From the NCBI GenBank assembly GCA_032718475.1, contig JAUCBJ010005260.1:1-64000 (forward strand): 64,000 bases of DNA, read 5' to 3'. The notes beneath the pieces are model-generated. The model was not told the DNA's origin. It saw nothing but the letters and a program-made list of their open reading frames with translations, and ran no database searches. This document shows, one piece after another, positions 20,338 through 60,620 of the stretch. Every line of letters begins with the position of its first letter. The first letter of the stretch is position 1. The stretch is from Nemertoderma westbladi. Its lineage: Eukaryota > Animalia > Xenacoelomorpha. Both the position numbers and the translations under genes were made by a program.

Positions 20338-20348
20338 GTAGGAATATG
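20338..20348 (+). promoter_or_regulatory. Non-tRNA primer-binding site of B (GTAGGAATATG)
   Basis: Exact reverse complement of LTR-internal 19275-19285 (CATATTCCTAC); starts at the first base after the LTR. Confidence 0.7.
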
Positions 20349-27100: not shown

Positions 27101-29856
27101 CTAAGACCATGCCCACTAAGTATATGACGACACCACGAGCCGAGCTACAAGCCGCGACCCTGTCAACCACCATCGTGAACCTCATACAGACAGAACTACA
27201 GTCGAGTTTACAGATATTTTATTGGACTGACGCGACGTTGGTTTTATTTTACATAAACAACGACACACTCGAATTCAAGACATTCGTAGCTAACCGTCGC
27301 GCAGAGATTCTAGACCGTTCGATAAAAGAGGATTGGCGACATTGTCCAGGACCACAAAACCCAGCTGATATTGCGTCGCGAGGAATGATGCCTGAGGAAT
27401 TCTGTAAACCGGAGAACAAAGAGTTTTGGCAACACGGACCCCAGTTCTTGCAGAAATCGACACAAGATTGGCCTCCGTTATACGACAACAAATCCAACAC
27501 CATTCCTAAGGACGCCGAAATCAAGAAACCAAAAAAGGGGAAGACAAAGAAAAAGACGACGGCGGCAAAACTCAAGAAAAAACCGAAGGCGAAATGGAAA
27601 GATATAACTTCAAAGGTCAAGAGAGGAAGACTTGCGAGCCTTTCTACACCAGACATATCGCCAGACGGTCAACCAGACATATCGCCAGACGGTCAACCAG
27701 ACACGTTACTAGACAGTCAACCAGACATTTTGCCAGACATATCACAAAATGTTCCACCAGACGCTAGTAACACACTGACAAACAGTAAAGCCGCAGTTTC
27801 TCTATTGGAGCGGCCTTCTATTGACAAACAACTAGATACGTTACCAGACGTATCGCCAGACACATTACTAGACAGTCGACTAGACACTAGTAATGTATTG
27901 ACTAACGATAAAGCCGCAGTTTCCCTATTGGAGCAGCCTTGTATTGACAAACTACCGATTTTGACACACTTGAGCAACCATAAGCACGGTGAAACCTCAT
28001 GTATTACAGATGTGGGTAGTACCTACGCTAATGTAAATACAGGTGTTACTTTGCGCTCAAGAGACATACCGAACTTACAACCTACGGTGAGACCTGGGAT
28101 TAATGTCGGCAGGAAAATAAGTTTACCGAAACCTGCTGACCCCATAGAGTTCAAACCACCATTAACGATCGACTTACAAAGTACCGACAATCAAGGTAAG
28201 AGGACAAAGGGGGACAAATTACTTGTAGACCCGGACGGATCAACAGTCAACAAGGGAATACCTACCGGCGGACCCGTGGGCCCTTCTAGTAATTTAAAAC
28301 CTTCCAAATTCTCCATTGACTTACCTGATGACGTCACAAATACTTACGTCGACCGAATTGTAAACTTAACAGACTCTTGGTCAAACGCTTGCCGAAAATT
28401 AGCGTGGATTGTACGTTTCGTACAATACGTTAAAGGCAAACGTGACTTTACACGTCGACTTACATTGGCTGAGATTGACAGGTGTGAGATTCAATTAATT
28501 CGCCATTATCAACTGCGATATTTCGCGCGCGAATTCACATCTATAAATCAAGGTCAACCAATCAAGTCGTCACCAATACTGAGTTGGAGTCCGATTATTT
28601 ATAATGGCTTAATTTGTCACAAATCTCGGCTTCAAAACATTGACTTTAACACAAACTTTAGGTACCCAATAATAATACCGCAACATCACGAACTACAACG
28701 TGCAATGATACTGGACGCACATTTACATCTGAAACACGCTGGAAGACACCACTGTCTTTCCTACTTACGTACTAGATTTGTATTAATTAGACCCAGTAAA
28801 GCATTAAGTTCAGTGACACGTACGTGTATTATTTGTAAAAAGGTACATTCTAGAATAGGTACCCAAGAAATGAGTGAACTACCACAAGCACGACTTCAAG
28901 CATTCAGACCACCTTTTACAGAGACTGGAATTGATTGCTTTGGTCCCATACATACGAAACGTGGACGTATACTAGTAAAACGCTGGGGACTGATTTTCAC
29001 ATGTATGTCCAGTAGGGCAGTCCACATTGAACGTGTGATGGATCTTTCCACCAACGCGTTTATACTAGCACTGCGGCGATTTATCGCTAGACGCGGACTA
29101 GTAAAATGCTTGTACTCAGACCAAGGGACAAACTTTGTTGGTGCTCGGAATGAGATTGCTAGAGCCTTTAAGAAATTAGATCATGATCAAATCTCGAACG
29201 AACTGCAACCTCACAAGATTGTTTGGAAGTTTAATCCTCCAGATAGTCCTTGGAGAGGCGGAGTCTGGGAGAGATTGATTAGATCTATCAAGACAGCCAT
29301 GGCAAAGGTCATTCCAGTAAACCACATACTAACAGACGACCAACTGACAACATTGTTTGTTGAAATCGAGGCAATACTAAATACTAGACCAATAGTATTA
29401 GTACCCGATAACAAACAATCTCAGTTTGCTTTGACACCGGCACACCTGCTTATGCAGGCACCGACCACATTGACGCCGATTTCCATTCCAATGGAAAGCG
29501 ATAGTTACGGTAGAAAAGCTTGGAAAATCACGCAACTACTGGCTAACAAATTCTGGGAAATATGGCAAAACCATTATTTGCCCTCTATTTCTGCCAGAAC
29601 AACTTGGTATAATAACACCCGCGCATTAAAGCCGGGAGATCACGTGCTGTTGGCAGAAGTGAATCTAAAAAGACGCTTCTGGATAACAGGTGTAATTTTA
29701 GCCACACATCCATCTATGGATGGAGTGACAAGGACTGTGACGGTACGGACAATTGACGGTCGTACAGTAGACAGACCGACTCAACGTCTCGTACTTCTTG
29801 AAGAGACTCGTAACGAGTCTGGAGACTACAAATCTCCACCTAATACTAGTAAATAA
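21145..29856 (+). CDS. gag-pol: BEL/Pao Gag-Pol polyprotein (Gag, 3 CCHC, PR, RT, RNase H, IN)
   Basis: PPKFSGSSKHW; CWRCTRHGHVRKDC; AILDSAS; YYLPHH...KVRVVNDC; FYVDD; LFDPLG; CFSDAS; NPADIASRG; HLHLKH...CIIC; GIDCFGP, SDQGTNF, GGVWERLI. Single ORF in PR-RT-RH-IN order, typical of BEL/Pao. Confidence 0.97.
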   Translation: MSDKQDYTKNTQTDYDSCDADKSAAEEQQGKTREPTEPTPCASPVHPTGVPDAVVRGDGRTEDFLTVPQPRYRETEMVSSAGSTESVVRSVGGYMAHITRSIGEDQRILDGLTAPMSRFEFYTLQVRVQSKVYKSVDNLVGLQDLARQRQDMDTQLRILEKLMITREKLIQFKSTIRQIQQEQADQLLGESVSDELLQPEEEQELYRLDGQLKHLTDHLRMCGEDVGDLETVPEYTRETPFAQIESAPGILNQSLVSIRSEICEGSMVTSEVARQQQQFYRQQHEMEEQAQLLMIQTAVEEEKIRVANVARISHLQEQAELEAAEMERLELDIAQQAAAAELAQRTATAELERQTAAAAAAAELERQTAAAELERQTAAAELERQTAAAELERQRLVSEARVEMKTRQIKAQQAIRQAEFEAQQQQTEQREKEVKLRFELEKRARELAETKENLDLLARDRSMRSRDGHDLDQLEVRHRQIQERKKEGSIGAPGRERQLVKDVCQRFPQVTHMFAPVTTKEPVSIAGSSDISPIHGATEHRFVIPNEFIPPRATSSPIPKVKVSNPPITDRSSLLVRPALLTTKQVSPPLTPKPVTHYDYPMTFRPTRPLDSNAVVRPPFNQFTSQSTTSRKTCEPTEQWRTVDTRPVQFTSQSTTSRKTCEPTEQRRTVDDVPKRAVRIRTTQRTRARRPPYPDDSSTSSESDYPKREVFRTGAADEYKRERSDNSFADNPPQNTPTQKALQPTDAISTQQFADILRPVVNKLAQIEERLEEVQTDSSRNTEFEHNRHPKAPQRPVPSNPTSYQGKAPRRENINQVTNQGRETLNVAEEIAKFAARQGLPVQQPPKFSGSSKHWHTFVDYIESQIAVCAFTSREKFNYLLQTLSGEPKRLAETFVGVPDAFELAYDRLTSIYGGTVSMARSVIEELCKGGAITKPVDLLKLADEIKNAITTLRSIGQLDYGNTPTVLLKIIGRLHHRLRRGWRKVEYQREERGGFLKLEDVYLLISREAVVETRSNYTDQHIVAEGITLPSSSRQKPQTTSTKTATYATPTESRQFSDGNRVSAPIGTKQTRQQLSADFNGCQYCEHLGKRYIGHKLRGCRQFRELNSEERRLQIRPLDSCWRCTRHGHVRKDCPNTDTCPSCGRNHDGLLHTDSHTPTKRFAREHPEAAARCDAAYRKRESKTTPTFVTHIEDCFSEQSGSSDEESEDDEYSNGDEQPSIALLTTDQLKGFSVIPIKITGTKGSKRIYAILDSASSHSYVDEKIADVVTDLRQGKHISYTVSSMHGQRAIPVTRVKLDLDSLLPKSQHSERERSLLPFRDLTFAATKDFSNLLGPVPEQSLEDRKYFRHLGVPECPVNYRSVAMLIGTDQFNLHQVWETRPSAVVAGNAYACRTPIGWYTRAPVRTLDVSDEEDDVQSTCSLLTTNSIHSFSHDVNHTTLQSTKHDRRVTSMISHKEQLTHQVSLELGEKTNQLEIPSTTDDRLASLPTPITSTVPVDIDDDALKIHQLEQAALDKELTEKTIRWLEQDTAEPGSYEPCMSEQEKQSLKIMEETIRQTEDGHYEVGMLWRSQSPKLINNYPLALRRLHSIRQRLLKDEKAHLQYNTQMETYLTEGYAIRMTNPERVTDQTYYLPHHYVRHPDKPDKVRVVNDCAALFEGMSLNSELMDGPNMNNYLMGVIMRFRQRQVAFTCDVEAMFHQVKALERDRDSLRFLWYPEGDLSLPPATYQMQVRVFGARDSPNCTMYALKQAARDQKHLYDPEIIRIVERDFYVDDGLQSCDTVERATTVAHQLRDCLAGGGFNLTKFASNSAELVDSFGTTERGGGDIDLEFEPLPTTKVLGLFWDPNTDNFRVKVRLDSQGDTLTKRSCLSKLSRLFDPLGFISPVILQARIYMRSIWKDGLTWDEPISSDQVDLWKTWEAELSSLEDYFIPRVYFPLQSTFPDNLELHCFSDASDNGFGVAAYLRRQVESDEFDVSLITSKAKTMPTKYMTTPRAELQAATLSTTIVNLIQTELQSSLQIFYWTDATLVLFYINNDTLEFKTFVANRRAEILDRSIKEDWRHCPGPQNPADIASRGMMPEEFCKPENKEFWQHGPQFLQKSTQDWPPLYDNKSNTIPKDAEIKKPKKGKTKKKTTAAKLKKKPKAKWKDITSKVKRGRLASLSTPDISPDGQPDISPDGQPDTLLDSQPDILPDISQNVPPDASNTLTNSKAAVSLLERPSIDKQLDTLPDVSPDTLLDSRLDTSNVLTNDKAAVSLLEQPCIDKLPILTHLSNHKHGETSCITDVGSTYANVNTGVTLRSRDIPNLQPTVRPGINVGRKISLPKPADPIEFKPPLTIDLQSTDNQGKRTKGDKLLVDPDGSTVNKGIPTGGPVGPSSNLKPSKFSIDLPDDVTNTYVDRIVNLTDSWSNACRKLAWIVRFVQYVKGKRDFTRRLTLAEIDRCEIQLIRHYQLRYFAREFTSINQGQPIKSSPILSWSPIIYNGLICHKSRLQNIDFNTNFRYPIIIPQHHELQRAMILDAHLHLKHAGRHHCLSYLRTRFVLIRPSKALSSVTRTCIICKKVHSRIGTQEMSELPQARLQAFRPPFTETGIDCFGPIHTKRGRILVKRWGLIFTCMSSRAVHIERVMDLSTNAFILALRRFIARRGLVKCLYSDQGTNFVGARNEIARAFKKLDHDQISNELQPHKIVWKFNPPDSPWRGGVWERLIRSIKTAMAKVIPVNHILTDDQLTTLFVEIEAILNTRPIVLVPDNKQSQFALTPAHLLMQAPTTLTPISIPMESDSYGRKAWKITQLLANKFWEIWQNHYLPSISARTTWYNNTRALKPGDHVLLAEVNLKRRFWITGVILATHPSMDGVTRTVTVRTIDGRTVDRPTQRLVLLEETRNESGDYKSPPNTSK

Positions 29857-30512
29857 TTAGGAGTTTACAAATAGATTCCACGTACCTGTACACCGTAGTA
29901 AGGACAGCGGTAGAATTCCATTGTCTTTATATGTGAACATTGAGGGTAGTACCCTTATGTGTCACATAGGAGCGGGATTTGTAGGTATAAGAAATGGAAT
30001 TCTACTTGGAACTCACAATATTGAGACATTTTCGAAATTTTAGACAATCCATTTGGATTTGAAAAATTTTTAAAATTTTCTCCAGTGAATAGATTCCAGG
30101 GTACAGTCGGGTGGAACTTAAAATTAGAGAAACAAGAGAGGAAGACTTGCGAGCCTTTCTTAAAATTTTAATTAAATTTTACACGGTCTTGTTTCAATAA
30201 GTTACGTCAAAATAGACTCCCCTATATTTATTACTAATTCTTGACTGCTTATTTTCTGATAATAGTTTGGGATCAAAAAGTGAGTATTTTAGACTCACGG
30301 CCAGTTTAGCCCAAATTCGTTTTTATTTCGGCAAAAATTTTAGATAAGAAGCAGCGTGTCATTAAAGAAACCCTAGATCTTAGGCTATGGGTAGGAGGTT
30401 AGAGCGTTGTCGAGCCCAAAGGGCAGACGAAACTCTCACGTCTCCTCACAACTAACTACAAACTCTGTTGTATTCCCTCTAGTAGTAATGATTATGTAAC
30501 TACACCCTAATT

Positions 30513-32215
30513 ATGGAGAAAGGGATACAAGGAGAGCCGAGATGGGGATATGATATCCAAGAGGAGGCAGCAGCGCCATTCGAAAGATTTGGAGCCAAGG
30601 ATTACACTATATTTGGTATAAAGGAATTATCAGAAAGTACAGCGAAGCTCGCAAAGACAGCAATGCCTTTACTCGAGCAGGATTTAGCATATTTCGAGAC
30701 GTGTATCTTCGCTGTGCGGGATCTCTTATCGAAAGACCATCTATGTTTACATTGTTACCCTATGAAGGAGAACGTATCGTGGAGATTATGGATGAATCAC
30801 GGCAGACGCGCGCGCCTATCGGTCACCTTGGTGATGAATTCGAAGTAACTACTACGATCGCCGACGATCCTTTAGAGGAACTTCTTGAGATAGAAAGGAA
30901 CCTCCCGAAGAAATCTCAGACGGAGATTCGACAACTTGAAGCAACAGATGCTATAGTTTGTATACAACCTTCAGAAACCTACCAACCCATAGACCCAGAT
31001 GATTACGATTATAGTATGGGAGGAAGCGCTCGACCGATTGGAGATCTTATATACGAACGAGTGTGGTACCCTGCCAATACGATGTGTAATAAATGTGGCG
31101 TCGCTGGACATCATATGGCAAAGTGCAGTGGAAAGCACATTACTACGACTCAGCTAATCTGTGGATGGTGTGGGGATCAAGGGTCTCATACCTTTTATAC
31201 TTGCTGGAGATTTATGGCTCAATGTACTTACTGCAATATAAAGGGACATCGAGCATCTGAATGCCAACTAAGGGACATACCTTATGAACACGAATCTGTA
31301 AAACTCGTGAGGAAGTTATTTGATGAGTGGGAAGATTTAGCCGACGAACATGTATCGGCACAAAGAAGACGGTTTCCGATGAGAGCGCATCTCGGATTTT
31401 GGGCGGTAAATCCTCAAACGATGATGTCGGAAGGATACATCTCCGCTATGCCTCAGTACGACGAACTTATCGAGGTTGTCGATATTTTGCCCCACGACAG
31501 CGGATTCCGAGTGGTGCGCGAGTATCTGTTACAGATTCACCCGGATAACAAAAACATGTGGAATTTTCAGAAAGTCGTAAATCGTATCACGTATGGTGAA
31601 TTTGATCGTTTCCGAACCGAAAAGCGGAATAAAGGAGCTTGGTTAACCGTCGCATGGGCGTACCGAGCCGCGTTTTACCATAAACGTATACGAGCGAGCG
31701 TATTCGAGGAAGAAGAGGTCCTAGAGGCGACGAATATATCAGCCACTCCGGTTGCGCCGTCTGCACGTCACCCTCGGGAGGACGGGCAGGGTAGGATCAT
31801 ACGGGTCCAGAAGGTGGGCCAACAATTGAAGAAAATTATTAATGTAGAAGAACGCAAGGGAGTTGAGCCGACTATTCGAGTTACTCGGGATACGGTATCA
31901 CTTCCAAGAGAACCGGTAGGAGGATCGGGACATACACCAGCTGATCAACAGGGGGCGCAAGCTACTCTTGGGTCTGCGTCGTCCGCTTCTCACGCGTTCC
32001 CAGACGTTCTACCAACTGTAGCGACGACTGATCGGTCACGAGGAATTGGTCGAGGTTTTGGGATGCCAAATAGACGAATTTGCGAGGAAATAGTTGCACC
32101 GTCTCTCAACGTCCCAAGTAAACCAGTGACTCGCCCCATTAGTCCCATATCGCGAGCAAAGTCACCTGTGCGCAGTTTTCGAGGACGCGGCAGGGCTCGA
32201 TCTACTAAGCGATAA
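30513..32215 (+). CDS. Accessory ORF of B after pol: triple Zn-knuckle protein with basic tail (two overlapping frames, 30513-30848 and 30701-32215)
   Basis: CNKCGVAGHHMAKC, CGWCGDQGSHTFYTC, CTYCNIKGHRASEC; homologous to the C-terminal part of ORF 39860-41749; branch-like ACTAAC (30451) and pyrimidine-rich AG (30481-30482) upstream. Confidence 0.75.
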
Positions 32216-32329
32216 AAGGGAGGGCAAGGGTGGACGGAAGACTCGTGGGCCTTTCTTATGATTTGTGATTTATTTTGAATTATATGTTTTATATTTAGAA
32301 AATTTAGTAAACTTATATTTTATATTTGT

Positions 32330-32800
32330 GCTTATTTCGAACTTATGCAATTTGTATTGTTCCGAATTTATGAAATTTAGAAATAAGAACTCATATTTAG
32401 TAAACTTATATTTAGTAAGAATTTATATTTTATATTTACGTGATTATTTCGAACTTATGCAATTTATATTATTCTGAACTTATGCAATTTATATTATTCC
32501 AAACTTATGCAATTTGTATTGTTCCGAATATTATGCAATTTATATCTTATAAGCAGTATTTGTATTTACAGTAAAAGAGAAAGTTTTATAGACAGAAAAT
32601 TTGTGCTCAGAAAGACTCATATTTGTAATTATTCCAAACTTATGCAATCTACATTTAGGTACGAAAGTATTTGTAATTACTTGAATTTATGCAATATTTG
32701 GGATGCAATAGTAGATGGAAGACTCGCGAGCCTTTCTTATTGTTTTCATTTATTTGTATTTGTAATTGTTTGAATTTATGCAATATCTGAGATGCAATAG
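32330..32800 (+). repeat. AT-rich degenerate tandem repeats in the 3' UTR of B
   Basis: Recurring aacttatgcaattt(a/g)tatt units. Confidence 0.75.
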
Positions 32801-33033
32801 ATTTATATTGGTGAATTTAATTTAGATTTATATTGTACTTACTTAGTAAAGCCTTAAATACGTAAAGTTTGAATTTGTAATTATTTTTGTATCGAATCAT
32901 TACGTAGAAAGGAAGTATTGTTTGAAATTTAATTGTAAATATGTAAGTACGCCCTAAGTATTCTATAGTTTGATTGATTATTGGTGAAAACCGTATATTT
33001 TAAGCACGATAATATCCTGTTTTCATGGAGCGG

Positions 33034-34956
33034 TATAGAATTATATTCCCTAAATGCCGTGGATTTTCAAAATTTTTATTTTATTCGAATTAACTTTGTA
33101 AAGATTGCTTTGAGTTCTCATTAGTATTGGTTCTATCTATTGTGTATCTATCGGTCAAGTGGTTCAGTAGCTCAGTTGGTAGAGCGTTGGAAATTATATG
33201 TGTAGTAGGTATCGAGTTCGAATCCTAGTAAGTGCGAATTATTTTTTGTGCAGAATTTCAACTCATTTAAATTAACCGCTACAAATTAATTGCATTTGTC
33301 TGTACCAATAAGGCTGTAGTTATTTGATTGTAACCAATGTCGTGCAAGTTATATATTAGCTGGACCAATAAGCTATCTTTAAAACCTTGTTAGAACCCAT
33401 AGAACAATCGAGAATTTTCTCGATTGATTGCAGCACAAATTTAGTATATAAAGGTGCGATTCGTTCATTAGTTATCAATCTCTCAATCTTGTATTTCAAT
33501 CTATACTTCTCAGATTTATTCTGTCGTGCTTAGTTTATTCTCAGATTACATTGTATTATAATTGTATCTTCTGTAATAAAGTCAGAATATTCTCTCAGCT
33601 TTTCTGTTTTACTATGAATTCACTACGGTGAACAAACTCGGGGACAGGATGGCCAGCTAGAGATCGGGCCGCAGCAATGAACGGGAACATCACGGGAATG
33701 TAGACGAGAGACAACCCGCAATACCATCTAGTGTTATTCGCCCATCGCCTGAAAGGTTAGACAGCGTTCGATCCTTGCTACCTAAGTATAAGACCAAAAG
33801 ATCAAAAGGTAGACGCAGTGACACGCTGTAAGCCCAAAATTACATCATAGGGACTGTACTGTCTTGATTCAGGAAAAAACCGCAGTAGACCTTCATATTC
33901 CTACGGGGGGAGGGAAAGCGCAGGCAGATACTAGTACGCAGATAGGACGTAGGCACACCGGTACAAGGCATACACATTGGTTAGGGTGCAGCAAACTGTA
34001 CGCTTAACTCTTGCTAAGTACAGGTGTGTGTGCGACTATTTGCCGTACAACGGTGTCCAGTGCATTAGAACTTGTAGGCTAGGGGGGTTGCTGTGTTTTC
34101 ACCTGAATTGGGATTGTACCGTTCAGGCGGTAGGGCAGTTTACGCTAGGCGCAAAATAAATTGAGGCTATCAGGGATATACTAACATCTACCGTGTCCCC
34201 GCCAACGCCCTAATAGGAAGTTACCCGGACTACCTGGGTGACTAAAATTCTAGATAGGAGCCAGGATAGCTATTAGTACCCGTACGCCTACAGTAGTAAA
34301 CTAACACATCTCTTCTTAGTATCAGGGACCTGGTACCTAAAATTGCCGAATTCTGGGCGTAGTATTAACCTTATGCCTGAATTTGAGTCCTGGAAATACG
34401 CAAGAGGGGAAGGAACCTTACCATTCGTGAGTATTGGACCTACAAGTTACAAATTAGAATATTCGTAAAATGCACACCGTACCCAGTAATTATATATGTG
34501 AAGGAGCAAAACTGCTTTTGACCGTTCAGAATTAACACACGCGCGTTAGAAATTATTTACACCTCAAAATATATAAAATTAACTTAGTCCGTACTGTGCT
34601 TTGCCCGCTAGTTAGACATCTCCAAATCTGCTCTGTACCTAGCTAGCGTCCTTTCGCCCAACCATATAAATCACACCGCGGCAAAGTATACGAGCCTCTT
34701 AGTCCGTCAGTGAGTCAGCCTGATTTTAGGATTCGCTGCGCGGGATTTTGTTTTATCGAAGTTTGTCCGCTCGTAGACTGTTTTCTGCCTCACCGGTTAA
34801 AAGAGATAGATACTGCAATATATTCGCTTACTTAGGGTTTACTGTTTTGGTGAGAAGGTCGGATTTATGATTTGATTTACAAACTTTACAGTAGGATATT
34901 GCAGGTATTGTTACCGTCTCTTCCGATAGTAGGAATAGGCGTATCTCTCCAATTTA
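33034..34956 (+). repeat. 3' LTR of element B
   Basis: Direct repeat of 18415-20337, preceded by GGAGCGG, followed by TSD CATCG. Confidence 0.93.
33161..33247 (+). ncRNA. tRNA-derived Pol III unit in 3' LTR of B
   Basis: Copy of 18542-18628. Confidence 0.65.
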
Positions 34957-34961
34957 CATCG

Positions 34962-35848
34962 GCCAAAACGCGCATGAGGCGCTGGAGACATTAGAGAAAC
35001 GACCTACTCAACCGCAACCACTTCAGACCTATGCGGTAAGAACTAGAGTAGGTTGGTACCTTACTGGACCTTCCCGTAGAACGCTCAGGGAAAGACTGCT
35101 TCAAGATCGCGTCTGCCAGGTGAGTGAATGGGAAGATGATACTAGTGAGGGAGACGACCCAACTGAGGGAACACCACACTCCTCAGATAATGACAATCTT
35201 AGCTCCAATGTAGATCAATGGAGATATTGCCCCAAGAAGTTTAATCCAACGGACATCGCTTCCAGAGGAGCAACTCCTCAAGAACTGACAGATACTATAG
35301 ACCGGTTAGGTGAACCCGACTTCCTGAGTAAGGAGAATGAATGGCCTCCCCATCTTACTCCGACTGAGATTAGACCAGCCAAGGGAGCGGAGAAAGTCGA
35401 ACCTGAAACCCGGACGGGTGGATCGGAGTTATTTGAACCCGGGATAGATCTGTCGGTATTACATGTTGCCAGGGACGACGCCGTGGATCTGAGCCTCCCC
35501 TCCGCGAGTGGATCCTTCATGAAGATCAGAGAGAGCGATTGGAGCTCTGGAACATCAGACGTCTCGCAGGGACTCTCACCTCTCCTGCAGAGAGCGACGG
35601 ACCACTATAGCTCCTGGAATCGGCTTTGTGACGCCGTCATATACTTTGAGCGATGTTTCTATCGTCACTATTCCAGGACGAAGAGGAAACCTGGAATTGT
35701 ATTCAGGATGCAGCGACTCAATCACCCAGTCGGTCGTTTGTGTTTATCGGAAGGGAATGGAGGACTCTCAGGAAACTATGGAAGGCAAGAAACTCTTCCC
35801 ACGACCACTTCCCTAATCCAACCGACATCTAGGGACTCCCCAACTTAA
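34962..35848 (+). pseudogene. pol: Remainder of pol of A: protease end fused in frame to RNase H end; RT and integrase core absent
   Basis: ...RTRVGWYLTGP...DQWRYCPKKFNPTDIASRG...YSSWNRL; no YVDD or integrase motifs seen. Confidence 0.85.
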
Positions 35849-37495: not shown

Positions 37496-40400
37496 ATGAC
37501 TGAATTAATAGAAGATGATCTTGGTATCAGGGAGAGATATACTCTACCTTTACAAGCGTTTGTCGATAGCTTGATACGCGGCGACGCTGATCCAACTATT
37601 ACGGAGGACGATGGTCGTTATATCGAACCGCCAATGTCCCAGGAGCAACTTACGCGTGAATTGGATTATAGAAAGTTCACTGCTCGCTACATGCATCGTA
37701 ATGGTACGTATATGGACTTCTTGACCACTGGTCATCCTATTGATTTACACGACACCGACGATGTAGACACCGAAAGGGAAATGGTTTTGTTTAAATATCA
37801 TGCCCAGCGGAGTCGAAACGATAAATCGAGAATAGAACACGAGAACTCTATTCGAAACAAACTCGAAATAGAAGACGTTGAAGAACCTGATAAACGTAAC
37901 GGTTTCAACGATTATCTAGAATTCTTACGAGAGACCTATCTCAATGTTGCCAGTCAACAAAACCTCGAAACTCGATATCCCCAAGGTATACATCCAGATC
38001 CTATAATGGAACTCAAACGGCTCTATTTTACGATGATGTATCTTACCGCCGATCGACCGCTACCTGTCGTTCCAGATAGCTTCGAACAGATGGAGGAATA
38101 TTGTAAAACTGGAGAGCGATCACCCGCGTTTCCCCTTCAAGACGTGCGTCTTTGGTATTACTGTGACGAATGCCCTAGACCTAACCAGCAAATCGAAAGG
38201 CATAAACATCCTCGGAGACGTTGCGCTAAACACAGTTTTACGCGATATACTTATGGGAGTTTCGAGCGTAACCTTTTCGACGTATCACCTACGGTCGCGC
38301 GCCTTAAGCGATCATTGAATAAACCCATGATCAGAGTTCCGGAATACTCGGTCAGACCTCCCCATTCACCAGTGATACCTCAAACTCTAGATCCTAATAG
38401 TATTATGGATCCTCCCGAACTGTACTCACTGTTCAAAGACCTAGTGTTACCTGAACAGTTGATTGGTGGCACTCCGGTAGTGGGTTCGTTGGATATTCGC
38501 CAACCTTACCTCGCTGGACTAGGACGCGGTCATTTAATATCACCGTTTAATCCCTACAACCGTCCTGGCCTTCCTCCGATCCAACCTGTTACAGAAGTTG
38601 AAGAGAGCGTGATACGAAATGCATTGGACGCTATTCGGCAGAAAATCGGAAAAGGAACTTACGATTGCTTGGAGAAACGTAAATTGCAACAACAAGTCCA
38701 AGCGGTGAAAGAACTAGCTTTACCCCAGTTCGATAGAGAAATACAAAATCTAGAGGAAGACATCGAACGTGGACGAACCTACTCTTTACAGGAATTCCTG
38801 GACGAGCGCTTGCAGCAACAAGCGGAGGAAAATCAGCTCAAGGAGAGACATATAGAGCTGACGGAGAGGGAAGAAGCAGCTTTAGCCCAACCAGAAGCTC
38901 AAATTCTCGTGACGGACCTCTATTCCAAAACGATTCTCCACCCCTCGATGGTTCCTCATTTTAAAGACAAGCTCTTTGCTACGGTACAGCCTCAACCGGT
39001 TAATACCGATCTCAGATCTCACGAGCTCGTTGCTGACGCTCCTATGCTACAACGTCCACCCGTAGAGGCTGCCCGTGTCGATGGCGTACTTGTTGAGCTT
39101 CCGGACAATAGAGCGGATCTTGTCCGTCGCATGGTGCACGATGTTAACATACGCGCTAGACCTTTGCCGGACTCATTTTATGGAATTAAAGATCATCCTT
39201 ATTACGTTAATTTAAAGCAATATTACATGGTGAAACCAGAAGATCCTACGCATAGTCTGAAGTTTCTACCATTGATCAATCCTCTCGACCTTGTCGAACT
39301 CGAACAACTACAAAAACACCTAGATCAGCTAGTTAAACTAAACTCATTTAGAAAACCGTATAATATTTCTAGAATAGAGAAAGAAATATCACCTCCGTAT
39401 AATCTTGATGGCTTTATTAAAACTCGATTAGTGCACTGGAATCTCGACGTGTTATTCGAGGAAGAAAGAATAAAACGATATGGCGATGTGGAAACCTATA
39501 CTACACAATGCTTAAAGTATAGAGATTTACCCAATGCTAACGAGTGCGCTACTTTGTGGCATCCAGTGGGAATGACTCTCGAAAACGCCACTAAAGAATG
39601 GAACGAGACTCTTAACGTTATCGAGATGTATGGCGTTGTTACTTACGACAACGAAGGTAGCGTTCCGGTGGGAGAATTAGGAACTACGCGAATGATACAT
39701 ATACGAGGACTCGCTGGTTCTACCCACGTATTCACACGAGCGTGTTCTGACGTGATTGATTATTCTTTTGAAACTCTTACGGAGATACAAAAGAAACTTT
39801 GACATGGACAATTCGAACTCGCGCAGCGTTACGTCACCGACACCGAACGCAAACCGGCCATGGGTATCGATGGATCAATGTTACCCCAACCTGTACTCGC
39901 AATGTTGTTTAACGAAAGAATTCTAAAAATCGGCTCAGCTGTTTATGGAGATCTCCAAAACGACTTCCGGAATATGGAGAACATTCCATACCCTTTCGTT
40001 GATACTCAGCTGATTGCTCCTTGGGCCGAAGGCCGAGGTTTCTTTCGCACTATGTATGCCAATACACCCAGCAGCATTACTAAAGTACAACGGACATCCA
40101 TCGGACATCTTGCCTTTCAAGAATATGGTTGGAATTTCAAAGTTGGAAATCCTATAAATTACCAGCAAGTATATGGAGATCATTACTCCCGTTTATATTT
40201 TGACGGACCATTAACTGCGCCTGGTGCCGTATATAGCTTTATGAGTGTTCCACTTCGCCCTTCCTTAGCTATATACACGATCTTTGAAAACGCAGCACTT
40301 GCCGGTTGGCTAGCCGATGTGTGCAGTCGTACCATACGCGCTCACCCGTTAATACTTGGAACTAAACTCGCCAAGTTAGACGAACACAATAAGTTCATAC

Positions 40401-41749
40401 GTTTCGAATGTTTCCGGCGCTTTCTGACTCCGTTCCTTAACATCGACAGTCAGTTCAAAGATCGCGCGCTGACCAAGCTCAGTCTTAGAGACTCAGCTGC
40501 GGAGAAACTGAGTAGCGCTGGATTTGCCGTGTTTCAAGACGTTTGTATACAGAACTCACATTCATCTGTTATACAAAGACCCCGAATACCTACAGGTTAT
40601 TCTGTCGTGGAAATACAGACAGTGGGTCCACTTACGGAAACCGACGCACCAACTTCGTCTATGCAGCTGGAGGATGAACCAGTATGCTTGGAATCCGAAG
40701 CGATTCAACCTACGGCTTCTCGGAGCAGTGACAATGATTATGTCATAGAGTGGTATCAAGGTCCACAGCGTCTCACAGCGTACGATTATCGACACGCCAA
40801 CCACGTTTACCGAAAACGTTGTCGATTATGCGCATCGAGAGACCACTTCACTCCTCTCGACTCGAGCGTACCTTGTTCCTATTTCCTCGAACAACCGATG
40901 ATGGAAATATATTGTGCTTATTGCCGGCTTAATAACTCTCATATATTTGCCGTCTGCCCACAGTTTATGACTCAATGTCACTACTGCCAACTTAAAGGAC
41001 ACGAAAGTTACAATTGTCCCTTTAATCGCGATTTAGAGAGCGTAGACGAGATGATCACCCTGCGATACATCCGAGCTTGGGAAGCGAACGCAGATTTACA
41101 TTGCGAATCCAGACATCGCTATTACCCTGGACGAGCTTACGAGGGAGTTTACGCGTTCCATCCTTATCTATTCGCGTCGATTGAACAGAAAACACGCGTA
41201 CCAAGTTACGAGTTAATGAAGCGTGTTGGTGAGTGTATTTCCACCAAGTTTGTCAGGAAATACCTGAGAAACGTTAATCCTAATGATATAACCACATATC
41301 ACCTGATCAATTATATCCGTCAGGACCCTGAGTATGGCGACATTTTCGTGAACTCGCATCCTGAACTCCAGGAAGTATCTCGGCGCCCATATGAATACCG
41401 AACCCGAGAACGCGAGCTGGAGAGAACCATTAAACCGAGAAAGTTCCTCACCACTCACGGTCCACCCACCGCTAGTGTCCAGACGACCCGTCAAGGACCC
41501 GTAGGAGCTGCTGTCCTGAGACGCGCTCTAAAGGCCGTTAGACCTCACTCCACTGAGGTTGATATTAATCAACCAGGTACCTCGACCGGCGGGTATACCG
41601 ATCGTAACCCTGCACCTTCTGATGCAATTATATTGCACCCTTCGCCTAGGAGCTACAGCCCACCTCGTAAAGTGGCTCGCCCCAAAGAGAAAAGGACTCT
41701 TGCTAGCCTCCAGAAACTGCGTAAACGCCGTCCGCGCAAGAAAGACTAA
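37496..41749 (+). CDS. Large accessory ORF of A (~1417 codons, one in-frame TGA at 39800-39802): unknown N-terminus, DEDDy-like 3'-5' exonuclease, Zn-knuckle domain, basic tail
   Basis: ORFs 37496-39802 and 39860-41749 are in the same frame with 19 sense codons between them. Exonuclease-like motifs VVTYDNE, LPQPVLAMLFNERILKIGSAVYGD, FVDTQ, PLRPSLAIYTIFENA straddle the stop. Confidence 0.75.
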
Positions 41750-41827
41750 CTGTTTAGAGTATTTTTATATTTTAGAAACTGTGATTTTGTATATTTTATA
41801 GACTTAAATCCCATTTTCTGGGAGCGG

Positions 41828-43019
41828 TGTAAAAGCTTTTGTGGGATAACTGATTCGTTTGCCTTGTTGGCCAGTTCCCCCCCAGTCGCTAAGAATACTC
41901 TCAAAGTGATCTACAGCTAAAAATAGTGCAAGTTACCAGCTTATTGGCTGATTTGCTGTACGCAGGCATCTGGGCTCTGTTTAATCGGCCAACAAGCCTA
42001 GGGAGGTTGCGTCATAGCCTTGTTTTGTATCTCCCAATAGAATTTGAGTTATCCTTGATGTTGACCTATCACAGAGTACTGAACTGAAAATTTCCTATCT
42101 CACTGCTCTTTCTCTGTGTTGAACGGGAGCTTCGTGGAATAAGGGAGTTGGTATCCTCGTATAGAGCAGTAGTCACGAGTTTTTCAAAGCCACGAAAGAA
42201 CGGCTTTTTAGTGTTTTGTGCTTTCTGCTTTTTAGCTCAACACTAGTAGGTTTAATCATAAGGACATATATCCTTTAACTGACCAAACGCACCTGATTAC
42301 TGACTGATTGTCTTAACTCAAAACAAACTGGCACGATTGATCTGTCAATACTGTGTACTGCTATTTGTTGTCGGTTATTCATTATATTTGTTGATGAATT
42401 ATTATATTGGAATAACGAGAAATAACCCCGACACCCAATATTCTTGATATACCGAAGGTAAGAGAGAAAGGTTACCAATAACGATTGTGACTTATGTTAA
42501 AGTGGTTTGAAGTGAATCTAATGTTATTTGATAGACCCTACATGAGTCAGTCTGTGTTCCTTTTATATGTGACTAAAATCAGTAAAGATTGGCAGATTAG
42601 TGTGCAGTATTGTGCAGCATTGTGTGCGAGTGAGTCTGTTAAAGAAGCATTCCTAAAGAATGCGCCATATATGTGAATTATAATTAAGCCATATCGTTGT
42701 GAGTAGTTTAAGTCATAACTCTGTTTATGTAGATAAAGTGCCACGTCCTAAAGGAACTGTTAATATTCCCGAAGGTAAATAATATTGTCAGAGATTATAT
42801 AATACTGTCAGTCGAATAATACATTAGGCTTACATAGCAATAAAATTAAACCGTCGAACCCAATCTCCCGGGAATATCCAGCGGGTGAATGGTCGCGCAC
42901 GGATTGGTTTCGACTAGTGTAGTGAATCAAATACTTGTCATAGGCTAAAAAGCGATTTAATATCTAGAAGACATCTTAATTTGGCGGGTTAAACTGCCAA
43001 AGGTCTGAAAGCGCGAACA
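41828..43019 (+). repeat. 3' LTR of element A
   Basis: Direct repeat of 10790-11981, preceded by GGGAGCGG, followed by the TSD. Confidence 0.95.
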
Positions 43020-43024
43020 CCCCG

Positions 43025-44929: not shown

Positions 44930-47900
44930 GCTTAAATCGATTGAAAGATAACCGATATTATAACGCAACCAACTTTATCAATAAGAATGGTGTAAAAAAT
45001 AAAAATGGTCAACTCCGTTTTAGAGGCTCTCTTTAAGATTTGATACTCAGAAGATTCCGGGTTCCTGATCACAGCAGCGTTGTTTGAGGCCAAGAGGCCC
45101 AGCTTTTGGTGTAGCTCCTCCAAAACCTTGGTGGCTTGCACAGATTCACCCTGCAACTCCTGCAAATGTCGTCGCTGCATAATCCGTGATTGCTTGTTGT
45201 TGGTGGCTTCGTCATGCAGTTGCTTTAAATGCTGCTGTATTTGTTGCCACTGCTGTAGCTGCTTTTCTAATGCACGCTGATTTTGTTCGCTCACTATCTC
45301 TCATTGTTTATTTAATCGATTTAATTCAAAATCAATATTATTTAATTGTTTCATTTTATTATTTACTGCCTCCTGCTTGGCTTGCAGATTTAATAAAGAT
45401 TCATTCAATCTCTCCCTATAAAGGGAATCCTCATTCGCCCGGGCGACTTTGTCTATCACCCTGGTGGGCCTGCTATCCCTCACCGACTCAACCAAGCTGA
45501 TGGACACAACCAGCCTGGAGGCAGCATAATGTCCTTCACGGGAGTCAATGATTTGGGACAGGCTTGGACCCAGGGTATGAGTGTTCAATGGGTGGGCATA
45601 GGCTGTGCTGGACATTCTATCGGCCAGTATTGGGATTGGTCACGCCTGTTTAGGGCGTACTGTAAGCGTAACTATTCTATATACTATAGAAGTTTTAGGA
45701 TGTAAACAATCTGCCTGATTACTTTCTACAGTAGTTGTCGAAATACCAATGGGTGTTGGTTTGGGTCACCATAGCCACAGATGTTACATTCGGCTTAGAG
45801 GGATTTATTAATATACGGGGAACAATATTTGAAGCCGTAAGAGCGGTGTTTATTGTTCTGAAAACATCACTATCAGAGTCAGTTCTAAGATCTTTAGTGT
45901 TTTTAACGGGATTAGCATGATGTTGAGGCGGCAGTTCTGGTAGACGATGACGTTCAGCCCGTTCCAAATGTCTTCCGCTTCTAGAGGTTCGAGATTTAAC
46001 CGACGATTTATCGAACTCATCGGAGGATGTATAGCAACTAACTTCCTTGGTCTACCCTTGGGTACTTGGTCTACCCTACTTCCTTGGGCTACGGTTCTCT
46101 TCCAACTGGGAATCTGACTGTTGTTTTTCCAGCGATTTCATCTCCTCCACTATATTATCTTGCTGCTTTTAATCTGCATTCTCTTTTGCTGAGCCTGAAA
46201 CTGGATTTCACATTCCTCTGCTTCCAGGTTCTGTTCAAGTTGATGTTCCTCCGCTTCCAGTTTATGATTATGTTCCTCCGCTTCCGCTTCCTGTTTGCAT
46301 TTTTGTTCCTCTGCTTCTGCTTCCCATTTGCGTTTTTGTTTCTCTGCTTCCAGTTTGTGTTTGTGTTCCTCAGCTTCATGTTCGCGTTGCAAGCGTCCGT
46401 CCTCTCCCTGGTCTTGTAATTGTTTCAATTTATTTTTATTTTTCTCTAGATCCCGATCCATCAATAATCTCCAGTGATGTTCCATCTCCCGTTAGATATC
46501 GATATCCTTTAGGAGCCTTATAGTCTTGGGGCTGGATGGAGGGTGGCCACGAAGTCTTCTTATTAGTTCTTCTTCACCTACTTGTTTTATATTAACAATA
46601 TAGTTATATACAATAGTTATTGGTTTTATATAACCTCCGAGGTGTTTACAGATTGCGTTTTCTTGTACCTTTTGAGTCTCGGGTTCAGTCTGTGTGTACC
46701 CTTCGACATCTCGGGTATCGATTAGGGATGGATGGACGGAATCCAGAACCTCAGGGTGAGGGGGTTTGCCTTAGAAGGAGTGGCAGGCGCGTGCCTATTG
46801 AGCTAATTTTATTATGTTGTTGTTAGCTGCAGTTTCTATTACTGCGGCTCCATTCCTGATGGCAGACTGATGGAAAGGCTGATAGAATTTTCCTGATGCG
46901 GATTATTCTCTCATTTATGTCGTAAAAGAGAGACGGAAGATGATCCCCTCAGGGTCTTCCCCACCTTACTAAGGTCGGTGGGATCGGCCTGTACCTTTAA
47001 TGCTCTCAATTCATCAGGGGTGGCAGAATGCAAGGGGAAAAACTTATCCAAAGATGAATTAGTTGTAGTATCGCAATACTGATTGTTGCATTTCTGGGAC
47101 TGACATGGACAGTATTTGGACCTTAGTCCCTTTCTCAGAGGCCCAGTATTGGTCAATGACCTTTAGCAGGCTGATTAATAAACCTGGGGAAGGGGCCATG
47201 AGTGGGTCCATTCCCGGTGGCAGGCTTAAACCTGTGGCTGTATCGACTTCCGTCCGGTTTAAGTCGGAGGTCGCAGCCACTTGCGGTCGGTCAGATTGTA
47301 ATTCGAGGCCAGTAGTGGGTTGGTTTGTTCTGGTGACTGTGGGTGGTTGATTTAATTTTGACGGCATAATGGGGTTTCCTGCTTGATTCGAACTGGAATA
47401 TTCGGGCTCGGGTAATTCTCTAGTCGGAGATTTGTCTGGGTCGGAATGAGCTGGTATCGCAGTCACGTCAAGGTTAGAGGTGCAATCGCTGTGGGAATTG
47501 TCTGAGGCGCTCTTGTTGATATTTGAACGATAAGACATTTAGTTAGATTTAATTTTGGAGAAATTTATTTTATATTAACCCTTTAAATAATTAGGCCTCC
47601 TTATGTTATGTTTATTATTGTTGTTTATTATAACAATATTAAGATGTTAGAAATAATTATTACGATGTCCAAATAAATAGCACGGAATTAAATTAAATTG
47701 ATTCGGTCTACAATTTAATTACCAGTAAGCGATTAGTAAAAAGCCGGTAATTTATTTGTAAGAATATTCCATGATAAATATTCAAATTCACCACTTCACC
47801 ACTTGGAGGATACTATTCCGCTCTTATCACTACATGCAATACTACTTACCAATAGAGTAATGAATTACCTCTTATTGGGTTCTATGTAAGCTGTACAATG

Positions 47901-48126
47901 TTTTCCTATGGAGGGTAATACAGCCTACCTGATTGCAGCAGCCAACTGAGTGGGGGTAATAAGCCTAAGCTGTAGTCAATGGTTACACAGAGGTAGGACA
48001 AGACATGTGACACAATATTGCTTGCAGAGACGACAAATAATTCCTCTCAAGAAATATATTGGTTTTGTAATATTACGCTGTCAGAGGTCCAAGTTGTAAA
48101 TAATGGATCTGAGGGTGAATACTACT
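44930..48126 (-). mobile_element. Decayed BEL-related element D, copy 2
   Basis: 45709-48126 is near-identical to 5215-7790 with indels; continues into further coiled-coil ORF fragments (44932-45615); left boundary uncertain. Confidence 0.7.
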
Positions 48127-48129
48127 GGT

Positions 48130-50412
48130 ATTTGCAACGAGAGCTGACTCGGCAAAAAAGCACCCCCGAACCCCCCACTATGGATTACATTAGTAATGCG
48201 GAGGTCCGGCCACTAGAGGCCAGTGGAATTACCGGACACAATCGGCCTCACAGGCGTCAGTTATCTCCTGACCGGCTGCTTGTCTCACCCCCTACTGGAG
48301 AGAGAGAAGCCAACAATTCTTTGAGTCCCTTTCCTGATGACCTTTCTGGCCCAAACCCCAGGTCACCAGGGAGGCCAGATTGTGAGGGGGAGAGGGATTC
48401 TGGAGTTTGGGGCTACTCTCATGTTCCACCCCGACCAACAAAGCCATTGGTGAATCTGAGGCAAGTCACTAGACTAGCCTCAGTAAACACCCTAACACTC
48501 GGGTCCCCAATGCGACAAGGTGAGCTGACTACCTTGGCAGATAAGCTTTCACTTAGCGCAGTGGGTGTTCAAGAGCACACTGGATGCAGACTGGACAGAC
48601 TGATGAGGTTCTGATTAAGGACATGGGGGGCGGTTGGCGACTCGTCATCGCGTCAGCAGATGATAGTGGCAATGGTGGTATTGGTCTAATTGATGAATCC
48701 AACTGCACATGCAGCATTGGACAAAATAGACCAAATCTCTAACTGCATCATCCGTTGCCACTTCTCATGTTCTAGAAGACTGGCTAAGAAGTTTCCTAAG
48801 GTTGTTCTGATTGTGTGCTACTCTCCAACTAGTGTTGCCCCTGTAGAGGAGGTGGAAAATTTCTACCACAATCTACAAGCAGCTACTGATGAAGTGGATC
48901 AGCATGCATTCTTAACATTCCTGGGAAACTTTAATTCAAGTCTGCATCAATCACCTACATCGCCCTGGGTCTATAGCAATAGTGTCAACCGAAATTCCGT
49001 CCATCTTCAGGATTTTATCTCTGGAAATTGATTGTTTTCGGCTGGAACCCAGTTCAAGAAGCAAACTGGAAAGCTATGGACTCATAGTGGACCCAGTGGT
49101 CACAAGTCCCAGATAGACCATATTCTGTTTCGTAGGAAGTACAGGAGCTCTATACAAGACTGTAATGAATTTACACTTCGACCCTTCTCCAGTGATCACC
49201 GCCTTATTGTGGCCAAGGTAAGACTTAGTCTGCGTGCTAGCAGAACAACGAAATCTGCCTTGCCGCAGCATGACTGGTCCTCTCTGTTGCAACAGCCAAG
49301 TGTGAAATCCAGCTTCACACTACAGCTGAGCAACAGGTATGAGGTTCTTGCCTCTGAGGTGGCAGATCACTGTGAGGGCTATACTGCCTTCACAGAAGCA
49401 GTTAAGTCAGCAGCTGCAGAAACAGTTCCTGTATACCCTCGAAACAGGAAAAGGACCCCCTGGACTGACAACAAAATCCAGAAGTGCCGAAATGACCTAT
49501 ATAAGGCGCAGAAAGAGTCCCAACTCAAACAGACTACAGCGGCCAAGAATGCAGTTAAGGCTGCATCTAGGTCCCTGAACAGGCAGTACTCTGTTAATCT
49601 ACAGGAGCTAATAAACCAACAGGTTGATGCCATCAATGATGCTGACGACAGCAGGCAATCATCCCAGGCATGGAAATCGATCAACTTGCTTACTGGGCGG
49701 AAAAGCCAACCAACCACCAAGGTTAAGGCTGAATCACCAGCCGATCGCCTCAATGGTTGGAAGGCCCACTTTGAAAAGCTCCTCAATAATGACAGAGTAT
49801 TGCCTGATAACTTTATAGAAGTAAAAGTGTCTGAGTCTGTACTCCCAGATATTCCCATTGGCGATATCTCCTTTGCAGAAGTGAAGGCTGCTGCAAAGAG
49901 CATTAAGACCAATCGTGCCAGTGGAGTAAATGGTGTTCCCCCTGAGGTCTTTAAAATACCTGAGTGTTTAAAGCTCATCTATCCCATCATAGTAGACATG
50001 TACCGTACAACAAGAGTCCCACAAGAAATGAAAACAAATAAGTTGGTGCCAGTTCCCAAGAAGGGCAACCTAACACTCTATGGTTCTTTTCGGGAAATCT
50101 CATTGATCTCGATTTCTGCAAAGCTATACAATAGAATTCTATTAAATCGCATCAGGGATCCCATTGAGAGACTGCTCCGTGGAAATCAGAATGGGTTCCG
50201 TAAAGGTCGTGGGACCATGGAGCCCATTTTGGCACTTAGAAGGATAATTGAAGAGTTATCAAAAAAGAAAGACAGGCATCTGGCTGTTATCTTTGTTGAC
50301 TTCTTCAAGGCCTTTGATTCAGTCTCTCGCTCACGTATGTTCAGCATACTTTCATTATATGGGATTCCTGATGAAATTATTGCAGCAATCAGATCAGTAT
50401 ACGATGGAGTAC
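48130..50412 (+). mobile_element. RTE-like LINE (APE endonuclease and RT N-half), disrupted and 3'-truncated by a Gypsy LTR
   Basis: RLASVNTLTL...VGVQEH, CYSPT, IDHILF, SDHRLI; PVPKKGNL, QNGFRKGRGT, FVDFFKAFDSV; contains a frameshift and a stop. Confidence 0.88.
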
Positions 50413-51041
50413 TGTCAGAATCACTGGCTCCTCAGCTCATTAGAACATGCTGCTTCTAGTGTTGGTCTTTTTATTAACTCCAGCGCCAGAGTGGAAGTGT
50501 ATCTGAGGCGGTATAAAACGATATATATATAGTTCTGTTACATAGGCTTACTATATACTGATATATATGATTCAAGCAAGGGCATATCAGTTCACAACAC
50601 AACGATAAGAATATATAGATATATATGTATATATATAACACAAAGCAGGTAAAGTGTACCGGTACGTCAGTATATAGGTAGGGCAATGTATTGGCGGACG
50701 CCCGGCCAGGTAGGTAGGCTGGGTAGGCAGGTAATGAATACGTAGCGATACCGGTTGGTAGATACTGGCTAGATACTGGTACTACACGGCCAGGTAGATA
50801 GGCCGGGTTGCCGGGGAGACTGTCAGCGCGAGGTACGGTATCTGTACCTGACAGCCCGACGAGTACCGGCACTACTGTACTGCTGGAAGTGCAGACAGGC
50901 AGATAGCTGGACAGAATGGAGTCGGATACAGAGTCCTTTATCTCTAAGCCAGAATGAATAAGCATCCCGACTACTGACCGGTTCATCCTTCACCCCATAT
51001 ATCCACAGGCCATGCTAGACACCCATAGGGGGTCTGTCGCA
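50413..51041 (-). repeat. 3' LTR of the minus-strand Gypsy element
   Basis: TG...CA ends, begins where LINE homology stops; adjacent minus-strand polypurine tract (plus-strand tctctttctttccc, 51043-51056). Partner LTR not in the window. Confidence 0.65.
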
Positions 51042-56028: not shown

Positions 56029-56568
56029 TTTATTATTAACTAGAGACTTTTCTTTTTCAGTTTCACATTGACTTGTAAAGGTAACTTTTTATCACAAAGC
56101 GTGATTATTATAAAGTATTTACATGTAAAGGTGACTTTATTGAGTAAATATTGGTGATAGTTTATATTTAGGTATAAAACATTCGTATGTAAATGCGTGA
56201 GTTTACACCACCTTAATAAAACATTAGCATGTAAAACCTACTTTATCAATGAAAATTAAAAACGCATTATGCACATCTTGACAGACTTGATTTTATTATA
56301 AAGAATTCAGTTGTAAAAGCAACTTTATTTATGATATTAGTTCCCAATGTAACTGTTATTTATGATTGGTTGGTATAAATAGAAACTTGAAATATACATA
56401 TAAAGAGCTCAACTGATTCAATCGAGCTCATTCTGAAAATATTAAATTAATTAAAGTTTAGATATTATATTTTATTTGTGTTGAGTAGCTTATGAATTTT
56501 TTTTGATTAAATATATATATATAACAATATTCATATTAATTTTAAATTGTTTTTAGGATAATAAAGAG

Positions 56569-60584: not shown

Positions 60585-60620
60585 TAAGAATGTAAGTTGC
60601 CAGCAAGTGTCAGCGATTAA

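Follow-up and report, generated by a model that had tools for sequence, protein, structure and literature searches.

A predicted DEDDy-type exonuclease domain in an extra open reading frame of a BEL/Pao retroelement

A BEL/Pao retroelement of Nemertoderma westbladi (element A) carries, in an extra open reading frame (ORF), a region that is very probably a DEDDy-type exonuclease domain with the residues D-E-D-E. The element lies within a 64,000-nt stretch of contig JAUCBJ010005260.1, which was analyzed as a whole and is referred to here as the window. An earlier annotation made from the letters of the DNA (the sequence-only reading) had proposed a DEDDy-like exonuclease domain as an extra ORF of a BEL element; this proposal is borne out by profile scores, by a reciprocal profile, and by the motifs of a homolog, P0002. 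Among the DEDDy relatives, Mut-7, Nibbler, and EXD1 promote silencing.

Results

Two nested LTR elements, A and B, were recognized by self-comparison of the window (Table 1). The LTR pair of element A differs at 2 of 1,192 positions, and both elements are young members of BEL/Pao. The DUF1759 gag of element A is a Pfam match, which supports the BEL/Pao context, and A has Cys knuckles in its gag, LTRs, and a 5-bp target-site duplication (TSD), as expected of the group; the BEL/Pao pol domains Peptidase_A17 and DUF5641 are present in the nested element B. Carriage of the exonuclease ORF by a BEL element thus holds on the strength of the DUF1759 gag in A and of Peptidase_A17 and DUF5641 in B. The description of the carrier itself had to be corrected, in that its BEL identity stands but reverse transcriptase (RT) and integrase are gone, together with most of RNase H. 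No RT motif was found ahead of the extra ORF of A, integrase was also absent, and the PR-RT-RH-IN pol with Peptidase_A17 and DUF5641 that characterizes BEL/Pao is lacking in A, although its pol frame is still open across the loss. Three lesions mark this copy of A: a duplication in gag, the insertion of element B, and a TGA stop codon in the extra ORF. The first of these, a 133-nt tandem duplication (98%) at 16950-17215, frameshifts gag and may be a genuine lesion or an assembly artefact. This copy of element A is a deleted, nonautonomous BEL/Pao member. The extra ORF sits 3' of the residual pol frame and upstream of the 3' LTR.

TABLE 1 Features of elements A, B, and C in the window
Feature	Position	Strand	Remarks
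TSD of A (5 bp)	10785-10789 and 43020-43024		
5' LTR of A	10790-11981	+	TG...CA ends
Candidate self-primer of A	11229-11240	+	12 nt, exact reverse complement of primer-binding site; second copy at 42267-42278
Primer-binding site of A	11982-11993	+	Flush with LTR end
Gag-protease of A	14129-18414	+	DUF1759, knuckles, aspartyl protease; interrupted by element B
Nested BEL element B	18415-34956	+	Inserted in protease of A; 5-bp TSD
LTRs of B	18415-20337 and 33034-34956	+	TA...TA ends; 1 difference in 1,923
Self-primer signature of B	19275-19285 / 20338-20348	+	11 nt
Gag-pol of B	21130-29856	+	Open, 2,908 codons: DUF1759, YVDD, Peptidase_A17, integrase, DUF5641
Extra ORF of B	30554-32215	+	Three knuckles
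Residual pol frame of A	34957-35848	+	Protease end fused to short post-RNase H pieces
Extra ORF of A	37496-41749	+	1,417 codons: 668 unassigned N-terminal residues, then exonuclease, linker, and knuckle module, with a basic tail
DEDDy-type exonuclease domain (predicted)	39575-40345	+	D-E-D-E plus Tyr
Premature stop	39800-39802	+	This copy only; inside insertion between strand 3 and ExoII helix
Knuckles and conserved W..G.Y/F domain	40820-41365	+	Three Cys/His knuckles at 40820-41017
Polypurine-tract-like end GGGAGCGG	41815-41827	+	Common to A and B
3' LTR of A	41828-43019	+	
Self-primer signature of partial element C	4227-4218 / 3008-2999	-	10 nt; LTR end inferred

Elsewhere in the window, a degenerate gag fragment akin to the gag of A occurs in two copies (93 to 98%) on the minus strand (5213-7793 and 45707-48126). 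A LINE-type RT fragment and a degenerate pol of the gypsy type, interrupted by several stops, were seen at 49032-50459 and 51382-53859 (minus strand), respectively. An AT-rich block at 54952-62735 contains, along with its neighbors, an ORF (56557-60584) that resembles a protein-primed DNA polymerase B; Pfam searches of this block gave no clear match, and we take it to be Polinton/adintovirus-like.

Next, the catalytic motifs of the extra ORF were examined, with the stop codon translated as X for the joined reading. All of the motifs named in the sequence-only reading were found in frame where that reading had put them. ExoI is TYDNE (D718 at 39647 and E720 at 39653), ExoII is LPQPVLAMLFNERILKIGSAVYGD (D819 at 39950), FVDTQ (D836 at 40001) and SIGHLA lie in the same frame as ExoI and ExoII, and ExoIII is PLRPSLAIYTIFEN (Y927 at 40274 and E931 at 40286), with Glu at the usual Asp position. 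D718 and E720 align with the D-T-E of bacterial enzymes and with P0002, which gives the D-x-E of ExoI, and D819 aligns on the helix after strand 4. The ExoIII motif departs from Y-x3-D and reads Y-x3-E in both the window and P0002; that is, the Tyr is kept and the Asp is replaced by Glu, so that the unusual Glu remarked on earlier recurs in a homolog.

Direct searches with the window domain found no match in Pfam and none among PDB sequences. A HMMER search of 1.84 billion protein representatives recovered two homologs, P0002 (E 1.3e-7, 30%) and P0003 (E 1.1e-4), both of them singletons without a name. P0002 has the motifs SIDVE, KVGSNIKADL, LDTQ, and WTKPLCHDQLYYIYCEN; it shares the ExoIII Glu with the window domain, its ExoIII context is near-canonical (W..PL...QLYYIYCE), and D-E-D-Y-E is kept in it at 30% identity. 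In P0003 the exonuclease has decayed, with ExoI Glu and ExoIII lost and the knuckles kept. In Pfam, P0002 scored 11.9 bits with PF01612, below the gathering score of 23.6. Word-based protein searches returned nothing or, in the one where the best 7,989 candidates were scored, P0002 only, and scans of viral contigs and a first scan of metagenomes gave no domain match or weak ones only. When P0002 was compared in the Atlas, PF01612 clusters were nearest, the first being PF01612 plus zf-CCHC; with a score of 0.86 and 163 shared features, below the Atlas's own bars, this is a lead only.

To compare the domain with bacterial exonucleases, a profile was built from 77 of 80 bacterial loci retrieved by their ExoIII pattern, of which all 40 tested were PF01612. 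This profile scored the window domain at 12.2 bits, a level reached by none of 1,000 shuffles (best, 5.2), and P0002 at 10.3 bits, again reached by 0 of 1,000 shuffles; with P0003 the score was not significant (93 of 1,000). A profile-profile comparison gave a probability of 80.6% (E 1.3e-5) over a span that includes ExoI and ExoII, and the reciprocal profile, made from the window domain and P0002, matched 50 of the 77 bacterial exonucleases at E<0.01. The ExoIII part was compared between the window and P0002, with an alignment score of 79 that none of 2,000 shuffles equaled. In MAFFT alignments with the bacterial enzymes, the registers of ExoI and ExoIII varied; an alternative ExoI register (DYSFET) and an alternative ExoIII register (INYQQVY) were not accepted, since the acidic residues are missing from both and P0002 disagrees with them.

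To gain further insight into the fold, the domain was modeled. Folding of the single sequence failed (pLDDT 29.5). A second fold was made from an alignment, chosen after local trials, of the window domain, P0002, P0003, and eight bacterial exonucleases cut before ExoIII, and it reached a pLDDT of 40 overall and 60 to 67 in the ExoII core. With this weak model, Foldseek gave no hit at E≤0.001, and DEDD enzymes ranked first. A wider structural search with the same model listed 50 entries (best Z, 8.5; model range, 29-280), all of which we take, judging by title, to be DnaQ-type. Because the alignment contained bacterial exonucleases, the DnaQ outcome is partly built in. The top entry was 1vk0 (RICE1/At5g06450; Z 8.5, tied with the entries that follow; 7% identity); 7c42 (TbRND) gave a Z of 7.1 (rmsd, 4.8; 146 aligned), and WRN, Klenow, and diDNases ranked high. 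Summing from the range ends with the last helix taken as ungapped, E931 would fall on RNase D 155, Rrp6 365, epsilon 167, and phi29 169, the catalytic positions of these enzymes, and would be one off for Klenow and WRN and three off for Asp230 of TbRND. The range ends also place E931 on residue 154 of ISG20 if the last helix, for which there was no bacterial guide, is ungapped; residue 154 is the ExoIII Asp of ISG20 (PMC9157404, excerpt). A DnaQ fold, with E931 in place of the ExoIII Asp, is predicted.

The sequence-only reading had also noted a single in-frame TGA, followed by C, with the frame open on both sides, and here the TGA was again seen, splitting an otherwise open frame of 1,417 codons. 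Copies of the family were surveyed in contigs from the runs of four studies (X1, X3, X4, and X5), with 20,186 contigs in X1, a set that may be the window's own source. The contigs show a diverse multicopy family. The stop was absent from 99.92% of the depth in X1 (49 contigs), from 99.90% in X3 (29 contigs), and from all of the depth in X4 (one contig) and X5 (three contigs), the last being possibly an RNA data set. The TGA is a nonsense mutation private to this copy; of the two explanations offered earlier, nonsense mutation was upheld and readthrough was not, since codon 39800 carries no stop in sister copies.

Between 39620 and 40330, 41 variants were present at 20% or more, a threshold that favors old variants. 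Forty of the 41 were listed and 39 were classed (the stop was omitted), of which 34 were synonymous and 5 were nonsynonymous (pN/pS, 0.043). Among the 40 listed, none at 20% or more fell in the six motif codons, and there were no indels. Over the whole extra ORF, 29 of the 40 variants listed (of 702) were at third codon positions. The exonuclease domain is under strong purifying selection in the family. The ExoIII Glu is a family trait and not a sign of decay, because P0002 shares it and no listed variant at 20% or more affects its codon.

The rest of the extra ORF was then compared with other proteins. Residues 1 to 668 had no match in searches of Pfam and of PDB sequences. About 160 aa separate the exonuclease domain from three knuckles, after which comes a W..G.Y/F domain that resembles DUF8363; an Atlas match to fungal DUF8363 is a lead only. 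No transmembrane segment was found in the ORF (highest 19-residue hydropathy, 1.19), and an env-like ORF3 was rejected for want of such an anchor. The knuckle and W..G module is common to the extra ORF of B, P0002, and P0003 (twice), and it was present in 4 metagenomic loci among 154 candidates. In locus L003 the module (5423-8209) follows a BEL pol (2-3727); it was also seen in L004 (615-3326) and in L002 (1747-2238), the latter near a gypsy-type RNase H remnant, and no exonuclease was detectable in L002, L003, or L004.

The extra ORF of B shows homology (27%, E 5e-19) to that portion of the extra ORF of A which lies beyond the exonuclease. No exonuclease was found in this ORF, nor was a remnant of one found in the spacer of B, where 82, 235, and 265 of 300 shuffles scored equally well; because the homology starts ahead of the first ATG, the extra ORF of B is possibly truncated. 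Judged by these sequence comparisons, the knuckle module is what the members of the ORF family have in common and the exonuclease appears to be optional, since B and L003 have BEL pol and knuckles without an exonuclease and the copy in P0003 has decayed. The knuckle and W..G module seems to represent a mobile ORF3 family that is as yet undescribed.

Several other features of element B were observed. Its LTR ends are TA...TA rather than TG...CA despite the 5-bp TSD, and words resembling the primer-binding site (GTAGGA) also occur at ∼20274 and ∼20309, which gives the impression of a displaced LTR end. Its pol contains a 123-nt repeat at 27708-27953. A tRNA-like A-box and B-box lie in U3 (∼18545-18615) and in the matching part of the element C LTR; they recall the LTRs of Helenus (PMC10886601, excerpt), and ARAGORN and Rfam gave no match for the region.

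Belpaoviridae are described as primed by a host tRNA in the ICTV profile (PMC8742986). No tRNA-type TGG was found after the LTRs of A, B, or C, and in place of a primer-binding site (PBS) complementary to a host tRNA, each has a site complementary to its own LTR. Self-priming is recognized by at least 10 nt, within 0 to 5 nt of the LTR end, that are complementary to the LTR (PMC6317226, excerpt); by that rule the elements have 12 nt (A), 11 nt (B), and 10 nt (C). The sites are exact complements, each with different letters, and the pairing ends precisely at the LTR end, with 741 nt (A), 1,052 nt (B), and 1,209 nt (C) of LTR after the primer. Of 20,000 simulated LTRs, 7 held such a site for A and 22 for B. 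A TATA box lies ∼450 to 490 nt ahead of the primer in B and C, which suggests that the primer, unlike that of Tf1, may not be at the 5' end of the transcript. The predicted probability of the primer helix was near 1 if the RNA begins at the primer, as in the Tf1 geometry, and fell to 0 when a start farther upstream was assumed, both being weak results of long-range folding. Two bases after the primer site in element C is a splice-donor-like AG/GTGAG (4217-4211, minus strand). This self-primer signature in three BEL elements contradicts the description of the family as tRNA primed.

Discussion

For intact copies, we tentatively favor the view that the extra 3' ORF supplies an optional DEDDy-type exonuclease that would trim single-stranded RNA and dampen the host's RNA silencing of the element, the anti-silencing role being suggested by analogy. 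The ORF could be expressed from a spliced RNA (a branch-point-like CTAAC is at 37447 and a CAG at 37491) or, alternatively, from an RNA that starts internally (TATA at 37453). As in trypanosome RNase D, the knuckles would hold RNA and guide its 3' end into the active site; the targets might be small RNAs, their precursors, or tailed RNAs of the element. Because carrier A has no RT, the protein may act in trans. RICE1 is an active enzyme with Glu at the position of the last Asp (PMC5451212, excerpt), a loose precedent, since other residues are changed there as well and metal is not needed. It counts against an anti-silencing role that the host DEDDy relatives Mut-7, Nibbler, and EXD1 promote silencing rather than block it (PMC5408684).

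The self-primer signatures raise the alternative of primer maturation, in which the exonuclease would trim PBS-paired element RNA to the edge of the duplex and leave a 3'-OH, with neither a tRNA nor a Tf1-type RNase H cut. A candidate substrate exists in the signatures of A, B, and C, flush with the LTR end and with long stretches of LTR (741, 1,052, and 1,209 nt) beyond the primer; moreover, the upstream TATA of B and C suggests a primer possibly off the transcript 5' end, and DEDDy enzymes trim the 3' ends of structured RNAs (PMC5408684). We nonetheless judge this role unlikely: in element B, whose pol is intact, the signature is present although neither the extra ORF nor the spacer contains an exonuclease, a point softened by the possible truncation of that ORF; the helix is predicted with near certainty in the Tf1 geometry and not from the guessed upstream starts, although these predictions are weak; and Tf1 relies on RNase H (from a title cited in PMC4600332, excerpt). 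A broader scenario, to which we give little credence, is that a BEL lineage dropped tRNA priming and captured a D-E-D-E exoribonuclease with knuckles to trim fold-back RNA into a primer, such that RT-less A-type families would supply the trimmer and pol-bearing B-type families would supply RT and integrase. It is also improbable that the domain has little or no catalytic activity and acts as a scaffold for RNA or a host partner, in the manner of EXD1, Egalitarian, and Maelstrom, with the Glu marking lost two-metal chemistry. The fourth carboxylate is noncanonical in both full homologs, P0003 has kept its knuckles without ExoI Glu and ExoIII, and inactive DEDD derivatives are known in piRNA pathways (PMC5408684); against this, the four acidic positions and the Tyr are kept at only 30% identity and across the family variants, and a dead domain would seldom keep such residues.

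The remaining alternatives are further from the evidence. A role as a 3'-5' exonuclease on DNA, in proofreading or in cleaning up the ends of cDNA ahead of integration, would fit the high structural ranks of WRN, Klenow, and diDNases and the DEDDy domains of Dada DNA transposons, which have been proposed to process 3' ends (PMC3706591, excerpt), but we consider it very unlikely for a domain that is joined, in an ORF of its own, to knuckles of the RNA type, that sits in an element without RT or integrase, and that is absent from the pol-bearing B and L003. Highly improbable, too, are chance motifs in a diverged non-DnaQ protein: the blank Pfam and PDB sequence searches, the failed single-sequence fold, and the unstable MAFFT registers of ExoI and ExoIII would be expected of such a protein, but the 12.2-bit profile score, the profile-profile match (80.6%), the reciprocal profile, and the alignment of ExoIII with that of P0002 would not. 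Scarcely credible is a TGA-C that serves as a programmed readthrough site to dose the exonuclease, for which only the leaky-looking context and the open frames on both sides speak, since the stop is missing from ∼99.9% of the depth in X1 and X3 and from the whole depth in X4 and X5 and this copy has other lesions, provided that no large subfamily bearing the stop was filtered from the contigs.

As cargo of retroelements, DEDDy domains have so far been a rotifer oddity without a functional test. The present domain indicates that capture of an exonuclease happened in another superfamily, BEL/Pao, and that it is maintained by selection even though the copy studied here has no RT. It also offers a concrete protein with which to ask whether such enzymes serve evasion of small-RNA silencing or the making of primers. 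In literature searches of incomplete journal coverage and without Repbase, no report of a DEDDy ORF in BEL/Pao was found and none of self-priming in BEL, and the excerpts of PMC3118150, PMC554778, PMC3601003, and PMC12440569 contained nothing further on DEDDy ORFs or self-priming in BEL. Thus, DEDDy cargo is known from rotifers, and the BEL/Pao case with D-E-D-E and knuckles is one for which we found no report, although its absence from print is not certain.

The rotifer precedent named in the sequence-only reading is a real one: DEDDy ORF3s with the motif DEED occur in the bdelloid gypsy-like Juno/Vesta LTR elements and in Athena/Terminon Penelope-like elements, with their function untested (Rodriguez et al. 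2017, PMC5408684); rotifer DEDDy elements also appear in PMC6431247 (excerpt), and PMC6338049 (excerpt) is a further source on DEDDy cargo. Like the extra ORF of A, the rotifer ORF3s lie after pol and before the 3' LTR, have an RNase D-like domain, and lack a transmembrane segment (PMC5408684). Their carriers are the Juno/Vesta clades and Penelope-like elements, whereas A is BEL/Pao, and their motif is DEED versus D-E-D-E in A (PMC5408684). In A, unlike the rotifer cases, the domain forms part of a protein of 1,417 aa that also has three knuckles, in an element without RT.

The self-primer signature also has counterparts outside BEL. In Tf1/Tf2/Tj1, Tf1/sushi, Tcn1, and TAR, the PBS is likewise flush with the LTR end, 10 to 12 nt are complementary to the LTR, and there is no tRNA site (PMC4600332 and PMC6317226, excerpts). 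Tf1-type elements are gypsy or copia, with a primer cleaved from the RNA 5' end, whereas A, B, and C are BEL (PMC4600332 and PMC6317226, excerpts).

Among cellular enzymes, the domain of A is like the PF01612 exonucleases (WRN, EXD2, Mut-7, Nibbler, and RNase D) in its ExoI DxE, in an ExoII helix-strand-helix with KxG...D, in the D after strand 5, and in the ExoIII Yxxx(acid); it is unlike them in an insertion of ∼30 aa after strand 3, in a long insertion before ExoIII, and in the Glu for the last Asp. Arabidopsis RICE1/At5g06450 (5v5f and 1vk0) has the DnaQ fold that is predicted for A and shares the Glu for the last Asp with A but has no ExoI Glu and no Tyr, is metal independent, and is hexameric (PMC5451212, excerpt). 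TbRND (PDB 7c42) has a comparable layout, with several CCHC fingers behind a DEDD(y) exonuclease, although it is a cellular protein with a canonical DEDD and has four fingers after a 28-aa linker (PMC7797062, excerpt). With ∼160 aa leading to three knuckles and a further domain beyond them, the protein of A can be likened to TbRND by analogy of design.
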